DNA of 64,000 nucleotides, taken from the NCBI RefSeq assembly GCF_028368995.1, contig NZ_JAQNDL010000001.1, forward strand, positions 2,240,001 through 2,304,000, given 5' to 3'. The notes under the pieces were generated by a model. That model worked only from the letters and a program-made list of their open reading frames with translations. It did not search any database and was not told where the DNA came from. A program made the position numbers and the translations under genes. Shown here in pieces: positions 1,623 to 61,202 of the stretch (its first letter is position 1; each line of letters starts with the position of its first letter). This DNA is from Nannocystis bainbridge. Its GTDB lineage: Bacteria; Myxococcota_A; Polyangia; Nannocystales; Nannocystaceae.

Positions 1623-2435
1623 TCAGCCGGTCGCCACCAGCAGCGGCGCCGACGCCCGCGAGCGTTCGCGGCGCATGTCGCGGAACACCAGCGCGTAGCG
1701 GGCCCGGTCGGCGTGCACCCGCAGCCACGCGTCGAGGCTCGGCTGCGCGTGCGCGTCGAGCATCTGCCGCATCGCCGCGACCACGCTCTCGTGCAGCTCG
1801 GGCGGCGTCAGCGTGCCGTCCATGTAGCGGACCAGCGCCGGCGCCCGGGCGGCGCTCTGCTCGCGCAGGCCCTGCCACTTGTCGCTCGTGAACTCGACCG
1901 ACGAGTCGCAGTGGTCGGCGGCCAGGCGCGCCATCTGGGCCCAGTCACCCTCCTCCGCGAGCCGCCGGATCTGCGCCCCGATCAGCCCGAACACCTCCGG
2001 GTGGATCGCCAGGATCTCGTGCGTCGGCTCGGCCGACAGCCACGCGTCGGGCTCCTCGACGAACACCGCCCCGACCAGGCCGGAGGCCAGCGGCAGGGCG
2101 CAGGTCAGGTGCTGCAGCCCGAACGAGATGGCCCGCCAGCGGTCGCGGATCTCGTGCTGCCACAGCGTGTTGACCAGCGGCGCCAGCTGATCGGGCGCGG
2201 CCATCATCCGCGCCACTCGCCGCTGCGGGCTCCCGATCGTCGGTCGGTAGGCCTCGAGCACGCGCGGCTGGGTGAACAGCAGGCGCCACTCACCGCTCAG
2301 CAGCTCGACGCGACGAAAGTCGCGGCCGATCAGGTCCAGGACCTGATCGCGGCTGGCCGTGGCCAGCTGGTGCAGCAGAACGTCCTCGATGTCGAGGTAG
2401 CGCTCGCTGCGTATGAGGTACGCGTGGCAGCGCAA
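1623..2435 (-). CDS. Hypothetical protein
   Basis: The C-terminal ~270 aa of ORF 1623..2816 has normal protein composition. TTG 2435 is a plausible start, but the start is uncertain. Confidence 0.7.
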   Translation of the reverse strand: MRCHAYLIRSERYLDIEDVLLHQLATASRDQVLDLIGRDFRRVELLSGEWRLLFTQPRVLEAYRPTIGSPQRRVARMMAAPDQLAPLVNTLWQHEIRDRWRAISFGLQHLTCALPLASGLVGAVFVEEPDAWLSAEPTHEILAIHPEVFGLIGAQIRRLAEEGDWAQMARLAADHCDSSVEFTSDKWQGLREQSAARAPALVRYMDGTLTPPELHESVVAAMRQMLDAHAQPSLDAWLRVHADRARYALVFRDMRRERSRASAPLLVATG

Positions 2436-2692
2436 GGCGCAGACGCTACCAGATTTGCCGCCCGACCTCAGCAGGAGACCCCGACCGGTCGAGAAAACTC
2501 CGGCCGCGGCCCGGTCGCTCGCCGTGGTTTTGCCGCCGAACGCCGCCACCGGCCTCGCAGCGGCCTTACGGGCCCGCGGGGACTCGAGCCCTCGCGCCTC
2601 GCTCCGGCCGCCATTCCACGGATCCGGCCGGTCAAAACGAGCCCGGGAGATCGCACATCCGCGCATCACCCCCCACCGCGGCGGCGCCGCCC

Positions 2693-2970
2693 CGCCTGTC
2701 CGAACGGACATGCCCCGAACCCGCGGCCGCCACACTCGTGCAATGGGACACACGTCCCGCGAGACATGGGCTCGCCCGCGCGGCCTCGTGCATCTTGCTC
2801 TCGGGACATGTCCCATTCGCCATGTTTTTTAAGACTTCCGCAGCATCGACGACATGTCCTTCACGACATGTCCATTCTGCCATCTGACCGCACTCCTGCC
2901 TCGTGCCGCCCCGCGACGCGACCCCGGAGCGCACCGCCTGTCCCGAGGCACATGTCCCAAACGCCAGATC
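2693..2970. repeat. Degenerate 14-bp-phased array of TGTC-N6-GACA palindromes (GACATGTC-like junctions)
   Basis: Junction octamers lie at 2693, 2707, 2749, 2763, 2805 and 2819 (one register mod 14) and at 2851, 2865, 2879, 2935, 2949 and 2963 (a second register). Exact palindromes are at 2697-2710 and 2855-2868. Confidence 0.8.
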
Positions 2971-3202
2971 CCCGGGCCCGCCGGCGCGCTCGCGCGCGAT
3001 CGTTCGCCGCGACACCGTGCAGCCGGCGGCACCGGGGCGAAAAGTCACTCCTCCCCGCCCCTGCCCCGCGAGCCGCCGCCACGCCCCTCTGCGGGCCTCC
3101 GTGACAATTTGCGCGGAATCGCGCGGCGAGGGCCCGTGCGTACCCGGGAGCACCCGGGCCCGCGTCGGGGGCGGCCCCGCGATATCCTCCGCTCCTCGCC
3201 AC

Positions 3203-4891
3203 ATGATCCAGCTCCACTCCGATCCCGCCATCGCCGAGCAGCAGATCGAGGCCCTGATCTTCTACCTCACGACCCTCGGCTACATCGACACCGAGTTCGA
3301 CATCCGCGAGAAGGCGTTCGTGCGGGCCTTCCTGCGCGAGCTGGTGACGGCGCGCATCGACGAGGGCGGCCCGCTCGACGCCGAGCTGCGGTTCGAGCGG
3401 ATCGAGAACCAGCACGAGCACTACCTCCAGCGGTTCCAGGAGATCGATCGCGAGATCAAGAGCCTGCTGACCGAGGCCGTCGCCGACGGCGAGGACCCGC
3501 AGCGGTTCGTCGTCTCGCAGCTCAAGCTGCGCTGCTTCGAGATGTTCCAGGGGCTCGACGAGGCGGGCCGGCAGCACCTGCTCGAGGTCGTCGACCGCTT
3601 CATCGAGGCCGACGGCCAGGTCCACCCGGACGAGGCCTCGTTCCGCAACGACCTCGCCGAGCTGCTCGGCGCCGAGCTGATCCTCGACGACAGCGCGCTC
3701 GAGAGCGTCAGCATCGAAGTCAAGGACCCGATCCAGCTGAGCGTGCCGGCGCAGGACAACCACCCGTTCTTCGCCAAGTTCGAGTACCACTACTCCGCCG
3801 ACCCGAGTCAGCTGCAGCGGCAGTTCGCCGTCGACCTCGCGCTGCTCGACAAGGTCGAGGAGAAGTGGGAGGAGTACCGCGTCCGCGGCCGCGGCCGGCT
3901 CGAGGGTCACGCCAGCGTGGCCGACTTCGCCGGAGGCGACGAGTTCCTCGACGAGCACGTCTACGTCCTCCCGGCCAAACCCGGCCGCCACTACGAGCTC
4001 ATCGTGCTCGGCGACCTGCACGGCTGCTACTCGTGCCTCAAGGCCGCCGTCCACCAGAGCAACTTCTTCGAGAAGGTCCGCCGCTTCAAGGCCGACCCCG
4101 AAAACAACCCCGACGTCCGCCTGGTCCTGCTCGGCGACTACATCGACCGCGGACGCTTCAGCTACAACGGCGTCCTGCGCACGATCTTGAACCTGTTCCT
4201 CGCCGCACCCGACCACGTGTTCGTGCTGCGCGGCAACCACGAGTACTACATCGAGTACCAGGGCAAGGTGTACGGCGGCGTGCGCCCGGCCGAGGCGATC
4301 AACACCCTCACCCCGCACCTCGGCGCCGACGTGTTCGGCCGCTTCCTCGACTTCTTCGACGCCATGCCGAACATGCTGCTGTTCGACCAGATGCTGTTCG
4401 TGCACGCCGGCATCCCGCGTGACAGCCTGGTGGCCGAGAAGTGGACCGACCTGGCGTCGCTGAACCGCGAGGACATTCGCTTCCAGATGCTGTGGAGCGA
4501 CCCGAGCAGGGCCGACATGGTCCCCGACGAGCTGCAAAAGGCCTCCGCCCGGTTCGCCTTCGGCCGCCTGCAGTTCCGCAAGTTCATGCAGCGGATCGGC
4601 TGCAACGTGCTGGTGCGCGGCCACGAGAAGGTCAACGCCGGCTTCAAGAACCACTACGGCGACGCCGACATCCGCCTGTTCACCCTGTTCTCCGCCGGCG
4701 GCGTCAACAACGACGACCTGCCGCAGGACAGCAACTACCGCGACGTCCGGCCGATGGCGCTCACCGTCACCAGCAAGGACGGCCTCGTCGAGGCCGTCCC
4801 GTGGGCCATCGACTACGACCGCTACCAGGACCCGCAGCGCAACAACTTCTTCAGCAGCGCCCCCGAGATCGACATCACCCCGCACGGGTGA
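3203..4891 (+). CDS. TerB-like domain fused to a PPP-family (calcineurin-like) Ser/Thr protein phosphatase
   Basis: PPP motifs GDLHG, GDYIDRG, RGNHE, VHAG and VRGHE. N-terminal GYIDTEFDIRE and ADGQVHPDE resemble the two TerB acidic motifs. Confidence 0.8.
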   Translation: MIQLHSDPAIAEQQIEALIFYLTTLGYIDTEFDIREKAFVRAFLRELVTARIDEGGPLDAELRFERIENQHEHYLQRFQEIDREIKSLLTEAVADGEDPQRFVVSQLKLRCFEMFQGLDEAGRQHLLEVVDRFIEADGQVHPDEASFRNDLAELLGAELILDDSALESVSIEVKDPIQLSVPAQDNHPFFAKFEYHYSADPSQLQRQFAVDLALLDKVEEKWEEYRVRGRGRLEGHASVADFAGGDEFLDEHVYVLPAKPGRHYELIVLGDLHGCYSCLKAAVHQSNFFEKVRRFKADPENNPDVRLVLLGDYIDRGRFSYNGVLRTILNLFLAAPDHVFVLRGNHEYYIEYQGKVYGGVRPAEAINTLTPHLGADVFGRFLDFFDAMPNMLLFDQMLFVHAGIPRDSLVAEKWTDLASLNREDIRFQMLWSDPSRADMVPDELQKASARFAFGRLQFRKFMQRIGCNVLVRGHEKVNAGFKNHYGDADIRLFTLFSAGGVNNDDLPQDSNYRDVRPMALTVTSKDGLVEAVPWAIDYDRYQDPQRNNFFSSAPEIDITPHG

Positions 4892-5663: not shown

Positions 5664-6251
5664 GTCTGCGGCAATATCAACAAGGGCGGCCGCGCGCAAG
5701 CGATCGCCCGCGCCGCCCCCCGCAGCGCCGCCTCCGCGCCGGCCGAGACGTGGTCGCCCGCTGGTCTTCGACATGTCTCTCGGACCAGATCACGTCCGCG
5801 CCGTCCATCGGCCCCCGGGTCGGGCATCGCAGCCCCGCGACTGGCACGAATCCCCGGCCCGAAATCATGGCCCGCCCACTCCTTCGATTCGCCCGGGCCC
5901 GCCCGCGAGCCGGGCGCCCTCGGGCGCCCACGGGCGACCTCGTGGCGGCCGACGGGCGCCGCGAGTCGGCTCGCCCGGGTCGCCGTTCCTCGCCCGAACC
6001 GGCAAAGATCACCGCTCGCCGTTCGCCGAGAATGCGCGGACCTGCCGTCGCCGGCGAATCATCATACCGGTGACGTGCGACACCCGTCACCCGGCTGCAT
6101 ACGCAATGGACACCGACCTTATGGCGGTGTTCGGCCCACACCTCGGCGGGCCGACGACCCCACGCGGGGTTACCCGTGTTCCTGTGTCCAGAGCCGTTTC
6201 CGACCCGTAGCTTGCGTATCTTCGCATTCCGATCCTAGCCTTGGGTCGTCG

Positions 6252-11856: not shown

Positions 11857-12386
11857 CAGACCGGCTCCTTCTGGGCCACACCCTGGCGGTATCGCACCAG
11901 CTTGATCGCCACCAGCCCGTTCTCCTCCTGCACCTCGAGCGCGTCGAGCGGCCGCGGCGACGGCCCGGCCTCGACCGCGCCGTCGAGCGCGAACGCCGAG
12001 CGGTGGCACGGGCACTTGAACTTCTGCGCCTCGGGGTCGTAGTCGACCGCGCAGCCGAGGTGCGGGCACACCGTCGAGAACGCCTGCAGCGCCCCGTCGC
12101 GCTCGAGCACCCAGCACGAGCCCAGCTTCACGTCGGGCGTCTTGTTCCACGCGTCGACCTTGTCGGCGTGGAGCTCGACCCGCACCGGCACCGAACCGGC
12201 GAACGCCGAGCGCTTGCCCGCTGGCAAGAACGCCCCCTCGCCGCCCTTCGACCCGGTCGGGAACAGCAGATAACCGACCGCCGGCACCACCGGCACCGCC
12301 GCCAGCCCCAACCCCAATGCCCCGATCCCCAGCTTCAACACCCCGCGACGGCCGGCGTCCGGCTCCCCTCCTGACCCAGAGGACAT
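11856..12386 (-). CDS. Rieske 2Fe-2S subunit of the bc complex
   Basis: CPHLGC and CPCHRS boxes and a TAT-like GRRGVLK anchor. Overlaps the cytochrome b start. Confidence 0.92.
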   Translation of the reverse strand: MSSGSGGEPDAGRRGVLKLGIGALGLGLAAVPVVPAVGYLLFPTGSKGGEGAFLPAGKRSAFAGSVPVRVELHADKVDAWNKTPDVKLGSCWVLERDGALQAFSTVCPHLGCAVDYDPEAQKFKCPCHRSAFALDGAVEAGPSPRPLDALEVQEENGLVAIKLVRYRQGVAQKEPV

Positions 12387-12510
12387 GTCCCGAGATTCAG
12401 CTTCGTGCTCCGCTCCGTGACCGCGTTCTCGGCTCGACATGGGCCTCCTGCCGCCCACGGCGGCCCCCGCAGGATACCCGACCGGCCGCGACCCACGCTA
12501 CCCTGCGCGC

Positions 12511-21100: not shown

Positions 21101-21730
21101 TCAGCCGTGGACTGCGCGTGGGTCGTCGCTCATCAGCAGCGGCCCCTCTTCGGGCGCGTCGATCACCAGCACCCGCCGACCGTCGCGGATCTCCGCGCGC
21201 ACCAGCCCGAGCACCGTCACCTCTTCGCCCGGCTCGATCACCCCCTCCTCGTAGCGAATGGCGATGTTGAGCCCGATCATGTTGACGCTCTTCAGCTCGT
21301 GGCGGCGCAGGAACGCCTCCTCGATCTCGCTCGCGTCGTCGAATGTGCCCGAGCGCGTGTGCAGGTCGCGGACCACCGCCACCCGCGGCACGCTCGTCAC
21401 CACCTGCAGCCTGCCGGTCCCGTCGTCGATCGAAAAATCGACGTAGCGCTCCTCGCGGGCCACCTCGCGCCAGTAGTTGCGCCCCGTCTCCTGGTCCACC
21501 GTCGCCAGGTAGTACACGCTCGCGCGGCCGGACAGCGGCGCCTGCAGCACGCGCTCGCCGGCCACCACCCGCCCGCTCACCCGCGCCACCTCGCCCTCGC
21601 GCAGCCCGCGGATCGGCGTCAAGGGCCGCCGCTTCAGCGTGCGCCGCGTGCGGGCGTCGTTCGACAGCGCAAAGGACAGCCCGGCCCCGACGATGAGCGC
21701 GGCGGCGACGACGAGGATCGGTGCAGGCAT
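21101..21730 (-). CDS. Membrane-anchored GIDE-domain-like protein
   Basis: N-terminal TM helix, then LQAPLSGR.SVYY, FSIDDGTG, RYEEGVIEPGEEVTVLG and PLLMSD. Confidence 0.7.
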   Translation of the reverse strand: MPAPILVVAAALIVGAGLSFALSNDARTRRTLKRRPLTPIRGLREGEVARVSGRVVAGERVLQAPLSGRASVYYLATVDQETGRNYWREVAREERYVDFSIDDGTGRLQVVTSVPRVAVVRDLHTRSGTFDDASEIEEAFLRRHELKSVNMIGLNIAIRYEEGVIEPGEEVTVLGLVRAEIRDGRRVLVIDAPEEGPLLMSDDPRAVHG

Positions 21731-21866: not shown

Positions 21867-22148
21867 GCCATGTCCCTCGAGACACATCATCTCCCGCGCA
21901 GTCGGGGCGATGACTCGAAGAATTATCCCTCGCCCTACCATACACATGTCCCCGAGACCATGTCTCGAAGGACATGTCATCCTACCCCCTCCTCACCCCG
22001 CGCACCCCATGCCCCTTGCGACCTGGGACGTTGGCGACGCGCCCGACGTCGCGAATCACATGTCCCATGCGACATGTGATTCGGACCGACACCCACGTCT
22101 CCACCTCCCAAAGTACATGTCCTTCGCGACATGTCCCGAGAAACATCA

Positions 22149-27861: not shown

Positions 27862-28515
27862 TCACTCCCGCCGCAGCACCGCGCAGCTGACCTGGTACGG
27901 GCGCGTCAGCCAGCGCAGCCGCGAGCCCGCGGTCCCGCTCGGGCTGTCCCGAAGGCCAGCCAGCTTGCGGAGGTCGCGGACCAGCAGCCACGGCCGGCGC
28001 AGCAGCTCGGGCGCGTAGCTCGGCCCGTCGACGACCTCGGCGCGGACCCGGCGCAGCTGCGGGAACAGCTCGCGTGACATGTCCTCGGGGTCAGGTCGAT
28101 AGTACGTGTCGATCGGGTCCGGGTGGTACGGGTAGCTGAACGGCACCGTGACGATCAGCAGCCCGCCGGCGGGCACCAGCGCCGCCAGCCCGCGGGCCAG
28201 CGCCGCGCGGTCGGTCACGTGCTCGAGCATGTTGCAGCACAGGATCGCCCGCGCCCCGACCGCCTGCAGCCGCGCGTGCCCCTCCGGGCTCAGCGCGTCC
28301 GCGGCGATGTCGACCCCTGGCAGCTGCTTCAGGTCGCTGTGCACCACCTCGGCCCCGCGGGCCCGCAGCGGCGCGAACACCTCGCGGTCGATCCACGGCT
28401 GCACGGCTGTCCTGAAGTGCAGGTCACTGCTGCCGAGGTTGAGCAGCGGCGTCAGCTCCGCGTCGCCCAGCTCCTGCAGCCGCGCCCGCAGCCACCGCGC
28501 CTCGACCTCAAGCAC
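27862..28515 (-). CDS. Methyltransferase-like protein
   Basis: LLNLGS, CNMLEHV, VTVPFSYPYHPDPID. Confidence 0.75.
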   Translation of the reverse strand: MLEVEARWLRARLQELGDAELTPLLNLGSSDLHFRTAVQPWIDREVFAPLRARGAEVVHSDLKQLPGVDIAADALSPEGHARLQAVGARAILCCNMLEHVTDRAALARGLAALVPAGGLLIVTVPFSYPYHPDPIDTYYRPDPEDMSRELFPQLRRVRAEVVDGPSYAPELLRRPWLLVRDLRKLAGLRDSPSGTAGSRLRWLTRPYQVSCAVLRRE

Positions 28516-29344
28516 GGACCTGCTCCTCGGGCCAGCTCGCCACCGACTCGAGCCCGCCGGCCAGCGCGATCTCGGCGACGAAGCCGAGCCGCTCCTTCGC
28601 GCGGGTCGGGTCGAGCACGTAGCGCATCACCTCGCTGCCGCGGTACGGCAGCGCACCGAGGTCGACCAGCTCGGTGCGACCGACGCGCCACGCCAGCGCG
28701 CGCACCACCATCGCCACCGCCGACTCGATCCCCGTGCCCGCGTTGTAGACCCCGACCGGCGCGTCGGCCTCGGTGCAGCGCGCCAGCAGGCGGGCCACGT
28801 CGCGCACGTGCACGAAATCGCGGGTCTGCTCGCCGGGCGTGCACGCGAACCGCTCGCCGGCCCGCAGCGCCGCCAGCAGCGACGGGATCAGCATCCCTGG
28901 CCGCTGACCGGGCCCGTAGACCACCCCGGGCCGCACGATCACCGCCTCGATCCCCAGCCTCGCCGCCGCCGCGCGCACCTCGTCCTCGCCGCGGATCTTC
29001 GCCCGCGCGTACGGCGTGTCGCCGAGCCGCTGCGCGTCCTCGACGAACGGCACCGGCTGCAGCCCGTACACCTCGCCCGAGCTGACGTAGACCACCCGCC
29101 GGGCCCCGCGGGCCGCCGCGATCGCCAGCGCCCGCAGCGGCGCCGCCACGTGCGCTTCAGTCAACGCCGCCTCGCCGCCCTCGCGGCCGCCGCCGGCCCA
29201 GATCAGCGCATGAACTTCAGGACATGTCCGTTCCGCCAGGCCCTCGCGGCCGAACGCGACCACCGGCGCCGCCGCCAACGCGTCCGCCGCGGCGCGGCCG
29301 ATGAAGCCCCCGCCGCCGCCGATCGCCACGGCGGTGACCGTCAC
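28508..29344 (-). CDS. NAD-dependent epimerase/dehydratase
   Basis: GGGGFIG, SSGEVYG, YARAK, RDFVHV. Confidence 0.88.
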
Positions 29345-30318
29345 GCCGCCCCCAGCAGCTCGCGATACCAGGCGATCGTGCGCTGCAGACCTTCGTCGAG
29401 CCCGTGGCGGGGGCGCCAGCCGAGCACCCGCCGCGCCTTCTCGGACGCCAGGAATTGCTCGCGGATCTCCCGCGACGCCTCGCCGAGGATCACCGGCGCC
29501 AGCGCGCGTGCGTCCATGTGGCCGAGCACGCGGTCGACGATCTCGAGCACGCTCTGCGGCCGCTCGTCGGAGAAGTTGAACGCCTCGCCGACCACCTCGG
29601 GCCGGTCCATCTGCTCGGCCAGCTCGAGGTACGCCGCCACCGCGTCGCCGACGTACACGTAGTCGCGTACGAACGTCCCGTCGCTGCGCACCACCGGCCG
29701 CTCGCCGCGGACCACCGAGCGCACCGTGCCCGGGATGATGCGGTTCCAGTTGAGGTCACCCGGGCCGAACAGGTTGCCGCAGCGGGTCACGCACACCGGC
29801 AGCTGGTAGCTGTCGAAGTAGCAGCGCGCGATCAGGTCGGTGCAGCTCTTCGAGCAGTCGTACGGGAACCGGCCCTCGAGCGGCGACGCCTCGGTGTACG
29901 GCAGCACCGGCTGGTCGCCGTAGGCCTTGTCCGAGCTGGCGACCACGACCCGCCGGACCTTGCGCTCGTTGCGTCGGCACGCCTCGAGCAGGTTGTACGA
30001 GCCGCGCACGTTGGCCTCCCACGTCGAGAGCGGGTTGCGCCCGGCGGTGCCGACGATCGTCTGCGCCCCGAGGTGGAACACCGCCTCGATCTCGTGCTCG
30101 TTGATCACCCGCTCGAGCAGCGGGTAGTCCTCGAGCTGGCCCTGCACGCTGACGCAGCGGCGGTCGAGCCCGCGCCCGTGGAACAGGCTGCGCGGGACCC
30201 CGTCGCGGACCAGGCACACCGGCGCCGCCCCGCGGGCCAGCAGCTCCTCGACCATGTGGCTGCCGAGCAGCCCGGTCGCCCCGGTGACGAGCACGTTCTT
30301 GTCTGTCCAAAAGGACAT
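29341..30318 (-). CDS. NDP-sugar 4,6-dehydratase (CDP-glucose 4,6-dehydratase, RfbG-like)
   Basis: [31 protein letters not shown]. Adjacent to rfbF. Confidence 0.85.
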
Positions 30319-33669: not shown

Positions 33670-33719
33670 CGCATGTCCCTGAGGGCATGTCTCTCCAGAC
33701 ATATCCTCGAGGACATTGC
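33670..33719. repeat. 14-bp-phased palindrome array (4 junctions)
   Basis: CGCATGTC 33670, GGCATGTC 33684, GACATATC 33698, GACATTGC 33712. Confidence 0.8.
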
Positions 33720-33754
33720 TGTTTGGTCATCCCACCGAACTGGCGAACGCGACG

Positions 33755-34100
33755 AGGCCGGCCTCCTACCCACCGCCCCATCGACGCTGCGGCCGGCACC
33801 GCACGAACGAGCCGGCCTCCTACCTACCGCCTTGCCCGATCGACGCTGCGGCCGGCACCGCCCGAACGAGAGGCGGCCTCCGGTCTACCGCCTGGCCACA
33901 CTGCGGCCGGCACCGCGCGAACGAAGCGGCCTCCTACCCACCGCCCCATCGACGCTGCGGCCGGCGCCGCACGAACGAGTCGGCCTCCTACCTACCGCCT
34001 TGCCCCATCGGCGCTGTGGCCAGCACCGCACGAACGAGAGCCGGCCTCCGACCTACCGCCTGGCCACACTGCGGCCGGCACCGCGCGAACGAAGCGGCGC
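33755..34100. repeat. Higher-order tandem repeat: six 53-61 bp units arranged (ABC)x2, 168-bp period
   Basis: GGCCTCC unit starts at 33760, 33814, 33875, 33928, 33982 and 34043. Shared core CTGCGGCCGGCACCGCnCGAACGA. Confidence 0.92.
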
Positions 34101-36728: not shown

Positions 36729-37493
36729 ATGAAGATCGCGGCGATCCAGAGCGACATCGCGTGGGAGGACCCGGAGGCCAACTTCACCCGCTTGCGCCCG
36801 TGGGTGGCCGCGGCGGCCGCCGCCGGCGCCGGGCTGGTAGTGCTGCCGGAGATGTTCGCCTGCGGCTTCTCGATGACCACCGCCAAGATCGCCGAGCCGC
36901 CGGGCGGGCCCTCGACCCGCTTCCTCGAGCACCAGGCGCGCCAGCACGGCCTGTGGATCTGCGGCAGCGTGCCCGAGGTCCCGCACGACGAGGCCAAGCC
37001 CTACAACACCCTGGTGCTCGCCAGCCCGCACGGCCAGGTCGTCCGCTACCGCAAGATCCACCCGTTCTCGTTCGCCAGGGAGGACGAGCACTACGGCGCC
37101 GGCAGCGACCACGTCACCGTCGACGTCGACGGCCTGCGCTGCACCCTGTTCGTCTGCTACGACCTCCGCTTCGCGGACGAGTTCTGGGGCCGCGCCGAGC
37201 AGACCGACGCGTACATCGTGGTCGCCAACTGGCCCGAGCGCCGGCGCCACCACTGGACCACCCTGCTGCAGGCCCGCGCGATCGAGAACCAGGCCTACGT
37301 CGTCGGCGTCAACCGCGTCGGTCAGGGCAACGGCCTCGACTACAGCGGCGACAGCCGGATCGTCGACCCCTGGGGCGAGGTGCTCGCATCCGCCGCCGGC
37401 GGCGAGACCATGGTGCTCGCCGACGTCCGCCCCGAGGTGGTCCGCGACGCGCGCGAGCGCTTCCCTGTCCTCAAGGACAGGCGCAAGCCGTAG
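36729..37493 (+). CDS. Carbon-nitrogen hydrolase (omega-amidase, YafV/Nit2-like)
   Basis: E-K-C triad in LPEMF, YRKIH and CYDLRF, plus ARAIENQ. Confidence 0.92.
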   Translation: MKIAAIQSDIAWEDPEANFTRLRPWVAAAAAAGAGLVVLPEMFACGFSMTTAKIAEPPGGPSTRFLEHQARQHGLWICGSVPEVPHDEAKPYNTLVLASPHGQVVRYRKIHPFSFAREDEHYGAGSDHVTVDVDGLRCTLFVCYDLRFADEFWGRAEQTDAYIVVANWPERRRHHWTTLLQARAIENQAYVVGVNRVGQGNGLDYSGDSRIVDPWGEVLASAAGGETMVLADVRPEVVRDARERFPVLKDRRKP

Positions 37494-37510
37494 CCCCGCG
37501 GCCGCGCGCC

Positions 37511-37996
37511 TCATGTCCGAACGGACATGTCCCATCCGCCATCCTCCGCCAGCGCCAGCAACGCGGCGCGGGTGACCACCAGCGGCGTGAACGTCAGCGC
37601 CCCGAAGCCGCACGCGATCGTCTGCCGGGCCCAGCCCACGTCCTCGTCGCCGACGATCGCCAGCAGCCCCGCCGGCCCGCCGCGGCGCAGCCCCAGCAGG
37701 GCGGCGTAGCACGGCCACAGGTACGCCCGCGCCTGCTCCTCGCGCGCCTGCGGGGCCACGATCGCCAGCCACGTCGAGGGCCCGCCGACCCGGCGCAGCG
37801 CGAACGCCAGGTCGGCCGCCCACTCGTGGCCGTACGCGTAGAGCTGGGTGTCGCCGACGTCGACCGCCTCGGCGCGGGCCGGCTGCTCGAGCTCCCAGCC
37901 GAGCAGCCGGTGCAGGGCGACGATCAGCAGCTCGGGCCGGCGTTGCAGGAGGTCGAGGACGGGGTCGACGGGCGAGGCGCACACCGGCCTCGCCAT
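37511..37996 (-). CDS. Hypothetical protein; degenerate Rpn/PD-(D/E)XK-like N-terminal domain
   Basis: LLQRRPEL..ADLAF..IVAPQ..YLWPCYAALL..WARQTI resembles, from recall, the myxobacterial RPEL..ADLV..VEVQ..WP.Y..WA..PI family. Confidence 0.55.
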   Translation of the reverse strand: MARPVCASPVDPVLDLLQRRPELLIVALHRLLGWELEQPARAEAVDVGDTQLYAYGHEWAADLAFALRRVGGPSTWLAIVAPQAREEQARAYLWPCYAALLGLRRGGPAGLLAIVGDEDVGWARQTIACGFGALTFTPLVVTRAALLALAEDGGWDMSVRT

Positions 37997-45604: not shown

Positions 45605-47600
<1,996 letters not shown>

Positions 47601-55344: not shown

Positions 55345-55528
55345 AACATGGCCCCTGCGACATGGCGCTTTCGCCATGTTCAGGGGCCTCGTCGCGAGCG
55401 GCCGCGGACCGGCATGGATGCGCGCCCCTCGAGACATGTCTCTCTCGCCATGCTCAATAACTCCATGGCAAGCGGCCACGGACGCGCACCGATGCATGCC
55501 CCTTGAGACATGTCTCTTACGACATGTC
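55345..55528. repeat. Cluster of 14-bp-phased palindrome junctions between convergent genes
   Basis: Phased sets 55345/55359/55373, 55433/55447 and 55493/55507/55521. Confidence 0.8.
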
Positions 55529-55584
55529 CCGTAAAACTCGTCCCGAGGAGCCGGGAGCGAAGTTCCTCTTCCTGACCCCGATGC

Positions 55585-55770
55585 CCCCCACGGCGCCGGC
55601 GTCACATCGAGCGCAGCTCGGCCATTCGCCGCTCGGCCATTCGCAGCTCGGCCATCCGCCGCTCGACCAGCTTTCGCTCCGCCTCTTCCGCCCGCGACCC
55701 GACCCCACGGCGCCGGCGTCACATCGGGCGCAGCTCGGCCATCCGCCGCTCGACCAGCTTTCGCTCCGCC
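55585..55770. repeat. Duplication of the 3' end of the adjacent gene with internal 12-15 bp expansions
   Basis: CCCCACGGCGCCGGCGTCACATCG(A/G)GCGCAGCTCGGCCAT..CCGCCGCTCGACCAGCTTTCGCTCCGCC occurs at about 55585 and 55703. Confidence 0.9.
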
Positions 55771-60482: not shown

Positions 60483-61202
60483 TCAGCAGAGCGCCGAGAG
60501 GCCCTCGACGTCGACGAGCACGACCGTGCGTCCGAGCAGATTGACGAGGCCTCGCTTGCGAAAGCTCGCCAGCGCCAGCGAAATGGTCTCGCGGGTCGAC
60601 CCGATCAAGTTGGCCATCTCTTGATGCGTGATCTTGAGGTCGACCTTGATCCCATCGTCGGTCTCGTGCCCGTACTCGCGGCCGAGCTCGAGTAGCAGCG
60701 CCGCCAGCTTGGCGTGGACGTCGCGGAACACGAAGTGCTCGAGCCTGGTCTCCGCGGTGCGCCGCCGCTGGGCCAGCACCTGGGAGAAGCGGAACGCGAG
60801 CACCGGGTCGGAGAAGATGAGGTCTCGCAGGGGTTCTCGCGGCAGTAGCGCCACGATCGCGTGCTTCATCACCTCCGCCATCTCTTCGCGCGGCGCGCCC
60901 GTAAATACGCACAGCTCCCCGAAGAACGCCCCTGGCCCGTGGTAGTCGAGGGTCAGCTCCTTGTCGTCGCGCGACACCTTGCTGCACTTGACCCGGCCGC
61001 CCTGCAGGAAGAACACGTGCTCGCCCGGGTCGCCCGGCAAGTACACGATCTGTCGCCGGCGAAATTCCTTGATCTCCACCACCGCGGCGAGCGCCCTCAA
61101 GTGCTCGCCGCCCACGCCCTCGAACAGTGGGATCTTGCGCAGGTACCAGAGCACCCGGCGCTCGTCCCTGGGCGGAGCAGGCTCCTTGGCGGCTTGATGC
61201 AT
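60483..61202 (-). CDS. Crp/Fnr family transcriptional regulator
   Basis: cNMP domain GAFFGELC..PRE and HTH ITHQEMANLIGSTRETIS. Confidence 0.93.
   Translation of the reverse strand: MHQAAKEPAPPRDERRVLWYLRKIPLFEGVGGEHLRALAAVVEIKEFRRRQIVYLPGDPGEHVFFLQGGRVKCSKVSRDDKELTLDYHGPGAFFGELCVFTGAPREEMAEVMKHAIVALLPREPLRDLIFSDPVLAFRFSQVLAQRRRTAETRLEHFVFRDVHAKLAALLLELGREYGHETDDGIKVDLKITHQEMANLIGSTRETISLALASFRKRGLVNLLGRTVVLVDVEGLSALC

Follow-up and report, generated by a model that had tools for sequence, protein, structure and literature searches.

Flanking genes and the intergenic region

The array studied here covers positions 2693-2970 of the window, by which we mean the whole 64-kb stretch of DNA that was analysed, and it lies between two divergent genes, as an earlier note on this DNA had placed it (Table 1). 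Genes in the window were called roughly, from third-position G+C (GC3), Pfam hits and orthologue alignments. The minus-strand gene encodes a conserved hypothetical protein for which no family was found in Pfam or NCBIfam. Its start codon is probably the TTG at 2435, since the longer ORF beginning at 2666 is broken in four of the six Nannocystis species compared and the orthologues align from that TTG, with tblastn matches starting at residue 1 in 51 of 80 loci. For the same reasons the conserved block at 2646-2683 was ruled out as the beginning of this gene. The hexamer TAGCGT at 2443-2448 may be its -10-like box, in which case the transcript would be leaderless; on this side of the region the word GCTACC is invariant in alignment A3.

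The plus-strand gene encodes a metallophosphoesterase that is 96% identical to the proteins of Nannocystis sp. RBIL2, N. pusilla and N. punicea, which places the source organism in Nannocystis (Myxococcota); the TerB hit in its product is sub-threshold (21.9 bits against a cut-off of 24.4). TATCCT at 3183-3188 is a candidate -10-like box for this gene, and the block preceding its ATG is conserved in all six Nannocystis species. A scan of positions 2300-3300 for sigma-70 consensus promoters and for terminators, T-tracts included, found none.

The DNA sampled comprised 64 kb of the source genome and about 100 kb from close relatives. Relatives were represented by 80 loci from species-representative genomes, found with the metallophosphoesterase gene, and five other Nannocystis species were aligned with the window. 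Null expectations given below are from first-order Markov simulations or dinucleotide shuffles.

Table 1. Coordinates of the flanking genes and of the motif sites and arrays discussed in the text (window numbering; mismatches are those of the TGTCC-N4-GGACA core)
Feature	Position	Strand or register	Remarks
Conserved hypothetical gene	1623-2435	minus	270 aa; divergent from the array
Non-coding block adjoining site 1	2646..2683		Nearly invariant in 6/6 Nannocystis species
Site 1, CCTGTCCGAACGGACATG	2695..2712	A	Core 2697-2710, 0 mismatches
Degenerate site, CACGTCCCGCGAGACATG	2751..2768	A	Core 2753-2766, 2 mismatches; in the species-specific insertion
Site, CATGTCCCATTCGCCATG	2807..2824	A	Core 2809-2822, 2 mismatches
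Abutting pair, CATGTCCTTCACGACATG + CATGTCCATTCTGCCATC	2853..2884	B	Cores at 2855 (1 mismatch) and 2869 (2 mismatches)
Site 2, abutting pair, CCTGTCCCGAGGCACATG + CATGTCCCAAACGCCAGA	2937..2968	B	Cores at 2939 (1 mismatch) and 2953 (2 mismatches)
Metallophosphoesterase gene, TerB-like N-terminus	3203-4891	plus	Metallophos E 2.7e-19
Site over Rieske gene start	12370..12387		CAT at 12384-12386 is ATG on the minus strand; kept in 4/4 species compared
Second dense cluster	21869..22147		Four sub-arrays of 2-3 units each, mutually out of register
Perfect 14-bp core over epimerase start codon	30302..30319		Gene 29341-30318, minus strand
Three-unit 14-bp array	33672..33717		Followed by a weaker fourth unit (by eye)
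Perfect 18-bp palindromes, CCTGTCCTCAAGGACAGG (37464) and CATGTCCGAACGGACATG (37512)	37464..37543		Weaker site abutting
Three sub-arrays	55347..55540		On the 74-bp tandem duplication

The palindromic unit and its 14-bp step

The element that recurs across the window is the inverted repeat TGTCC-N4-GGACA, present in 27 copies with at most one mismatch against 1.2 expected; in Nannocystis DNA it has the best score among all 5-mer inverted repeats with spacers of 0-8 (18 against 0.15). The consensus of the 27 sites is an 18-bp palindrome, C(A/C)TGTCC-N4-GGACA(T/G)G, in which C occupies outer flank position -2 in 37 of 54 half-sites, A and C occupy position -1 in 30 and 23 of them, and the four spacer positions are nearly free. 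The word ACATGTCC is likewise in excess (27 copies in the window against 0.88 expected, with a maximum of 4 in 100 shuffles). Overall the window, whose G+C is about 71%, holds roughly one site per 2.4 kb. In 16 TGTC-N6-GACA sites the fifth bases of the two halves are C/C in six, C/T in five, C/G in three, and T/T and G/T in one each; the half-sites of one palindrome vary independently, and covariation of the hairpin type is absent.

The earlier note had described the unit as centred on CATG. The CATG junctions are there, but the unit itself is better described as an abutting palindrome of 14 or 18 bp with CATG as a by-product: CATG arises at array junctions because the GGACA of one site abuts the TGTCC of the next, and isolated sites are flanked by CCTG...CAGG, without CATG. 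A further shared word, CCTCGTGC, of which three copies had been noticed by eye, shows no enrichment (9 against 7.05 expected).

Neighbouring sites are set 14 bp apart. At this distance the window contains 21 pairs of CATG where 0.79 are expected (and no more than 4 in any of 100 null simulations), 13 pairs of TGTC against 0.44 and 5 pairs of GACA against 0.77. The autocorrelation that had been suggested as a check, with peaks to be looked for at 14, 28 and 42 bp, was run on the window and gave a sharp CATG peak at 14 bp and a weak one at 28 bp (5 pairs against 0.59), and was flat at 42, 56 and 70 bp (1, 2 and 0 pairs against about 0.6), with no signal of a 42-bp supercycle. The helical arithmetic behind the suggestion is correct, 14 bp being about 1.33 turns and three units about 4 turns.

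Between the 82 sites with at most two mismatches, distances of 1-28 bp take only the values 14 (13 pairs), 16 (one pair) and 28 (two pairs), which is the pattern of arrays of the MetJ, Fur and omega type, with one strict register and other short spacings absent. Positions 14 bp to either side of strong sites average 5.3-5.7 mismatches against 7.7 off register, and four or fewer mismatches are found there in 30-37% of cases against a background of 2.4%. Left and right neighbours resemble the motif to about the same degree (5.74 and 5.30 mismatches), and a polarity of the arrays was rejected on this ground. The exact 14-bp abutment recurs at more than 10 independent loci of the window, mostly as arrays of two units and occasionally of three or four with degenerate ends. 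As a control, 75 loci of other Nannocystaceae, Kofleriaceae and relatives lack a peak at 14 bp, with 9 pairs there and a mean of 15.9 at other distances. Given the conserved half-sites, the free spacer and the neighbours at 14 bp, the units behave as protein-binding sites and not as copies of a repeat.

Within the focal array, the twelve coordinates listed by the earlier note proved real, each being the start of an 8-mer related to GACATGTC: the match is exact at 2805, 2851 and 2865, has one mismatch at 2707 and 2949 and, judged by eye, two mismatches at 2749, 2763 and 2819 and three at 2693, 2879, 2935 and 2963. The two registers that it had distinguished are also there, A with position mod 14 = 5 and B with position mod 14 = 9 (Table 1); a core with two mismatches lies off register at 2737. 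The perfect decamer GGACATGTCC, at 2804-2813, precedes the site at 2807..2824, and site 2 is a paralogue of site 1, with 79% identity over 33 nt (family D3).

The array keeps its register over gaps of 56, 56, 46 and 84 bp. That phase is conserved, as had been claimed, holds for direct neighbours at 14 bp and fails for long-range phase over gaps: of the 17 site pairs that are separated by 29-160 bp in the rest of the window, only 2 keep the register, and no shared register was found in the orthologous regions of the five other Nannocystis species. Register over gaps is peculiar to the focal locus and not general; it could there be due to chance (about 0.001, calculated post hoc and assuming uniform phase) or be a historical relic.

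Conservation and location of the sites

The intergenic region of the six Nannocystis species aligns only in blocks, with a mean column identity of 55% and large indels. At site 1, TGTC and CGGACATG are invariant in all six species and the spacer varies (GAAC/GTAC/ATGC); at site 2, TGTCC and ACATG are invariant and the spacers differ, and the distance to the metallophosphoesterase start codon is 242-296 bp in all six. This suggests that sites 1 and 2 are under purifying selection. The dense middle, at about 2720-2930, is absent from two relatives (L001 and L007) and different in three more (L002, L003 and L004), and on the alignments it is an insertion specific to the species of the window; the degenerate site at 2751..2768 has no counterpart in L001 or L007. 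The region holds 2-4 sites in other Nannocystis species, other copies of the motif included, and 8 in the window, and the five other Nannocystis loci have 4-7 sites each against 0.6-1.4 expected. Near 5769, the left half-site TGTC of another site is kept in six of six species and the right half is variable.

In cultured Nannocystis the intergenic region is 570-825 bp long. Its length is roughly 150-400 bp in the majority of the other Nannocystaceae loci, and most other Nannocystaceae retain the divergent gene pair with an intergenic region devoid of sites. The motif is sporadic in a few MAGs of the Nannocystaceae (judged by eye, L015 with an array of three units, L006 and L009) and at background in the loci of Enhygromyxa, Plesiocystis and Kofleriaceae and in the 75 non-Nannocystis loci overall. 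The comparison thus presents arrays gained within an intergenic region that has grown over this range of lengths, and such a gain bears on the expansion of non-coding DNA in large bacterial genomes.

Intergenic DNA makes up 12% of the window by the rough gene calls, and about half of the 27 sites are located within it or at its borders. Nine sites fall in the interval from 20 bp inside to 200 bp upstream of a start, which takes in 14.6% of random positions, and ten are situated in a gene at a depth of more than 20 bp, compared with 66.6% of random positions. Thirteen are within coding calls, some of them in Pfam-covered domains. Genes on either strand have sites upstream of them, downstream of them or within them, and the distances of the sites to the nearest start span -1446 to +1690 bp without favouring any value. 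In five genes, by reading, the ATG forms part of the left CATG of a site (starts at 5774, 12386, 30318, 38600 and 53200). The second dense cluster is upstream of a GIDE-domain gene (21101-21730, minus strand), and the arrays at 33672, 37512 and 55347 lie between convergent genes.

Putative operators, a candidate binder and alternative explanations

Because the half-sites are conserved around free spacers, the two halves vary independently, sites are conserved across species and they are enriched in intergenic DNA and upstream of starts, we read the motif as a putative protein-binding site, and we consider this likely. We propose that the array is a cluster of overlapping operators for a sequence-specific homodimeric DNA-binding protein of Nannocystis, and from the sequence comparisons we put the probability of this at about 0.6. 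Four things are inferred here, namely protein binding, the family of the binder, cooperativity and repression.

One dimer would bind each 18-bp palindrome, its half-site centres, about 9 bp apart, lying in consecutive major grooves that face the same side of the helix. The following site of an array would begin 14 bp further on and share the 4-bp CATG; since the sites step by 14 bp, successive dyads would be rotated by about 120 degrees, and the monomers of neighbouring dimers, about 5 bp apart, would lie on roughly opposite faces, an arrangement in which co-occupancy may be allowed. A strong site could then nucleate binding at weaker in-register neighbours and turn the array into a high-avidity, probably cooperative platform. 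That adjacent sites are occupied simultaneously and cooperatively is a suggestion we make tentatively. Mutually exclusive binding in alternative registers is possible because adjacent 18-bp sites share 4 bp, and two winged-helix monomers may clash there, making neighbouring sites alternatives. The stacking at 14 bp is a clean case for the occupancy of overlapping operators, together on different faces or in alternative registers. The protein would occupy long intergenic regions and start-codon sites, where it would most likely repress or insulate transcription.

Abutting operator units that are bound cooperatively are known from the 8-bp metboxes of MetJ, the hexamer arrays of Fur, the 7-bp heptads of omega and the tandem binding of TrpR. 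The Nannocystis arrays resemble these in having short head-to-tail units whose strict register does not correspond to complete turns of the helix, with strong units flanked by weaker ones and 2-5 units per operator. They differ in that the unit is 14 bp long and is a palindrome in its own right, its 4-bp spacer being free, and in a copy number per genome that, by extrapolation, is much higher. For operator arrays, the strict 14-bp overlap, the genome-wide density and the lineage restriction are unusual. A search of the full-text literature that is openly searchable, a scope that leaves aside subscription-only papers and supplements, returned no description of the motif and no paper in which GGACATGTCC occurs together with myxobacteria.

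Our leading candidate for the binder is a protein of the PadR type, which is favoured because the motif has the geometry of a PadR operator; we offer it as a lead and not as an assignment to that family, and on the analogy with known operators the identification is doubtful. In passages of PMC3506622 and PMC5428041 the canonical PadR motif is given as ATGT-N8-ACAT, and a passage of PMC5728393 has the PadR of B. subtilis recognising the 18-bp sequence C-N-T-G-N-A-N6-T-N-C-A-N-G; LmrR, of the same family, binds its operator as two dimers per DNA according to a passage of PMC5428041. Compared with the operators as these passages describe them, the window consensus has the same 18-bp span, the outer C, the free second base, the TG and TGT-N8-ACA at identical positions, and with them the outer bases of the PadR inverted repeat. 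The match is confined to geometry and outer bases because, on the same descriptions, PadR needs A at half-site position 6 (A11 in the B. subtilis operator) and the motif has C there. Stacks in a 14-bp register do not appear in the PadR passages of PMC3506622, PMC5428041 and PMC5728393.

The candidate departs from the known pattern in its genetic setting as well. A PadR-family operator would be expected to have its cognate gene, usually an autoregulated one, close by. No PadR gene adjoins any site examined: Pfam searches found neither PadR (PF03551) nor another suitable regulator among the ORFs of the window (54 main ORFs and 59 in gaps), and no PadR gene among the 8 ORFs to the left of the window in L001, which are the ORFs in which a cognate gene was sought. 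The NCBIfam search covered 23 proteins without a Pfam family or with weak hits only. Of classical regulators, the window encodes no more than a single CRP-family protein and a pair of ECF sigma factors, and the flank in L001 has a 76-aa HTH_17 protein as the only regulator candidate there; by eye none of these adjoins a strong site, and they were rejected as binder. The gene for the binder may lie in another part of the genome. Known PadR proteins govern one or a few operons, in contrast to a motif that recurs about every 2.4 kb.

In the CRP/FNR family, operators have the geometry TGT-N10-ACA, and the site of the myxobacterial MrpC is GTGTC-N8-GACAC. The motif is similar in its TGTC/GACA half-sites and in the 5-4-5 layout of the FNR box, but its own geometry is TGT-N8-ACA, 2 bp shorter, which rules out the CRP/FNR layout. 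The CRP-family gene of the window is at 60483-61202, by eye with no site near it.

Several features count against operators that act locally under a dimeric regulator. The density of the motif is very high for a gene-specific regulator. Genes, too, contain more copies of the motif than expected, with 13 of the 27 sites in coding calls. The arrays between convergent genes have no promoter there to control. The word CATGTCC is commoner on the plus strand (18 against 9 in the window, and 26 against 10 for CATGTCC-N5-GCCA), a modest bias where a symmetric dimer site predicts none. A wider reading, which on the same sequence data we think unlikely, is that the motif constitutes a lineage-specific, genome-saturating operator code, with several thousand sites (extrapolated) in each Nannocystis genome of 11-13 Mb, that would be read by a sequence-specific, polymerising winged-helix silencer or nucleoid-structuring protein. 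Such an abundant protein would assemble in the 14-bp register, winding by 120 degrees per dimer, and the system would have colonised long intergenic regions and helped to expand them. If this were true, bacteria would have their own equivalent of cooperative repressor filaments, made from the PadR-like family, of which to our knowledge only local repressors have been described so far. A single protein that reads the motif would define, in Nannocystis, a regulon or nucleoid-organising system of very large size that has not been described before. In practical terms, the motif can serve for capturing the binder by DNA affinity and for annotating regulatory DNA in Nannocystis genomes.

A related explanation, distinctly less probable in our judgement, gives the sites a chromosome-level function, as targets of an abundant nucleoid-associated or organising protein, possibly polar relative to replication, that would coat or structure the DNA at every array. 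The density of sites, the 13 of 27 inside coding calls, the arrays between convergent genes and the absence of a preferred distance to starts all speak for it, as does the plus-strand excess of CATGTCC in a window where the GC skew is negative throughout. Chromosome-organising sites such as parS, matS and those of Noc and SlmA, however, number tens per genome and not thousands. The strand bias is also weak, with one replichore sampled, the neighbours on either side of a strong site are about equally motif-like, and the sites are enriched upstream of starts.

It is very unlikely that the palindromes act as hairpins or cruciforms, either as REP/BIME-like elements spread by a RAYT-type transposase or as RNA stem-loops for stability or translation. 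Each unit could form a stem of 5-7 bp with a 4-nt loop, five genes have their ATG within a site, and one cluster lies on a 74-bp tandem duplication. The focal region also folds better than its shuffles (z of -3.47 on the plus and -2.49 on the minus strand), but in the minimum-energy fold that is predicted, pairing between distant copies of the motif prevails over local hairpins, and the excess was rejected as evidence of structure, as it is expected of repeated palindromes and the region, with its dense middle, is not conserved between species. The fifth bases in the 16 sites show no compensatory changes, mixed C/T half-site pairs (five) outnumbering T/T (one). REP and BIME elements are likewise short lineage-specific palindromes in many copies, often in intergenic clusters and sometimes between convergent genes; REPs are 20-40 nt long, and the Nannocystis units are far shorter. 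A strictly extragenic location and a conserved loop, by which such elements are recognised, are not seen, as about half of the sites are intragenic and the spacer is nearly free, unlike the loops of mobile-element copies. The placement of sites upstream, downstream and within genes of both strands also counts against this reading, as does the lack of T-tract terminators in 2300-3300 and of any Rfam match at gathering score in the window.

Still less probable is an array without function of its own, made of decayed local duplications of a one-site segment whose register would merely be their history. The dense middle that differs between species, the 8 sites of the window against 2-4 in its relatives, the longer intergenic region of cultured Nannocystis and a register over gaps that is seen at the focal locus alone would all fit such an origin. 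A duplication is visible in the cluster at 55351-55517, where TRF reports a 74-bp tandem repeat of 2.3 copies with 74% matches, so duplication does contribute to arrays elsewhere than at the focal locus. Against this, TRF (score of at least 30) reports nothing in 2693-2970 and, once the half-sites are masked, self-identity at offsets of 14-112 bp is 0.21-0.32 around a mean of 0.27 (sd 0.054), that is, at background; the focal array thus shows no similarity over whole head-to-tail units such as defines a tandem repeat or VNTR, which bears out the view of the earlier note that it is not a recent tandem duplication. An origin by 56-bp duplication was rejected because no similarity is left after the masking. 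That the half-sites are kept though the similarity around them is gone implies selection on the half-sites, and the exact abutment recurs at more than 10 independent loci.

That the arrays are upstream activating sequences at which an enhancer-binding protein serves sigma-54 promoters of the flanking genes is scarcely credible: myxobacteria carry many sigma-54 enhancer-binding activators and the arrays lie at an enhancer-like 230-500 bp upstream of the metallophosphoesterase start, but the sigma-54 consensus, allowed two mismatches, has 15 matches in the window where 19.15 are expected, with the intergenic stretch 2436-3202 devoid of any, conserved candidate -10-like boxes lie near the starts of both flanking genes, and thousands of sites for a single activator are implausible.

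One further likeness concerns the eukaryotic p53 response element, whose half-site is RRRCATGYYY. As a coincidence of sequence only, in a bacterial host whose isolated sites have no CATG centre, GGACATGTCC is formally a perfect half-site of this kind, and such decamers recur with short spacers.

Conserved non-coding blocks and gene starts

Two blocks of the intergenic DNA between the minus-strand hypothetical gene and the TerB-like metallophosphoesterase (phosphatase) gene stand out in the alignment of six Nannocystis species. The first, which adjoins site 1, the copy of the TGTCC-N4-GGACA palindrome at 2695-2712, is conserved above the level of the intergenic DNA around it, and an ORF across it is interrupted in four of the six species. 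The second is kept in all six and ends in a -10-like hexamer lying ~15 nt upstream of the phosphatase ATG; this second block probably represents either the gene's core promoter or a short leader.

Many genes of the window carry a TAnnnT-type -10 box 6-8 nt ahead of the start codon and no Shine-Dalgarno sequence, an arrangement which, judged from sequence, suggests that leaderless mRNAs are common among them. Clear GGAG-type ribosome-binding sites were seen at other starts.

Features of the window and of a related locus
Feature	Position	Remarks
38-nt non-coding block	2646-2683	adjoins site 1; near-invariant in 6/6 Nannocystis species
Block ahead of phosphatase gene	3144-3188	palindrome CCCGGGAGCACCCGGG, then GGGGGCGGCCCC, then -10-like TATCCT
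Epimerase-family ORF	28508-29344	minus strand; Pfam model matched only from profile position 85
59-bp tandem repeat	33752-34098	between convergent genes; ~6 copies, 77% matches
74-bp tandem duplication	55351-55517	2.3 copies; carries three motif sub-arrays
15-bp tandem repeat	55612-55669	3.9 copies, 88% matches; follows the 74-bp duplication
Starts with TAnnnT-type -10 box, no Shine-Dalgarno (examples)	13755, 15820, 21730, 39398, 39459, 45397, 59290	
Starts with clear GGAG-type ribosome-binding sites	30318, 38600, 47600, 61202	
76-aa HTH_17 protein (E 1.4e-12)	L001 6336-6566	~230-460 bp left of window start

Tandem repeats and coding sequence beside the motif

A three-unit motif array (33672-33717) immediately precedes the 59-bp repeat, for which periods of 114 and 168 were scored as well; by eye, the motif is absent from the consensus unit of this repeat. 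A motif pair (29209/29223) falls within the 5' part of the epimerase-family ORF. Given where its Pfam match begins, this ORF lacks the N-terminal nucleotide-binding part; a full-length epimerase gene lies directly upstream, and the ORF may represent a gene that is truncated or was called wrongly. The motif match at 45605-45614 was rejected as a coding coincidence, being the end of groEL (…GGMGGMDM stop) on the opposite strand.

Strand bias and related loci

Across the whole window, which lies on one replichore, CATGTCC 8-mers number 18 on the plus strand versus 9 on the minus strand, and CATGTCC-N5-GCCA occurs 26 versus 10 times; GC skew is negative throughout, while CATGTCC favours the plus strand. 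In L001, a related phosphatase locus from another Nannocystis, the region upstream of the HTH_17 gene is without sites at ≤2 mismatches. In L011 (40-160), a related locus from a Nannocystis MAG, AACCTGTCC-N4-G(G/A)(G/C)CCAGCCCC occurs three times at 36-bp steps; this may be a variant form of the motif that repeats at another period.
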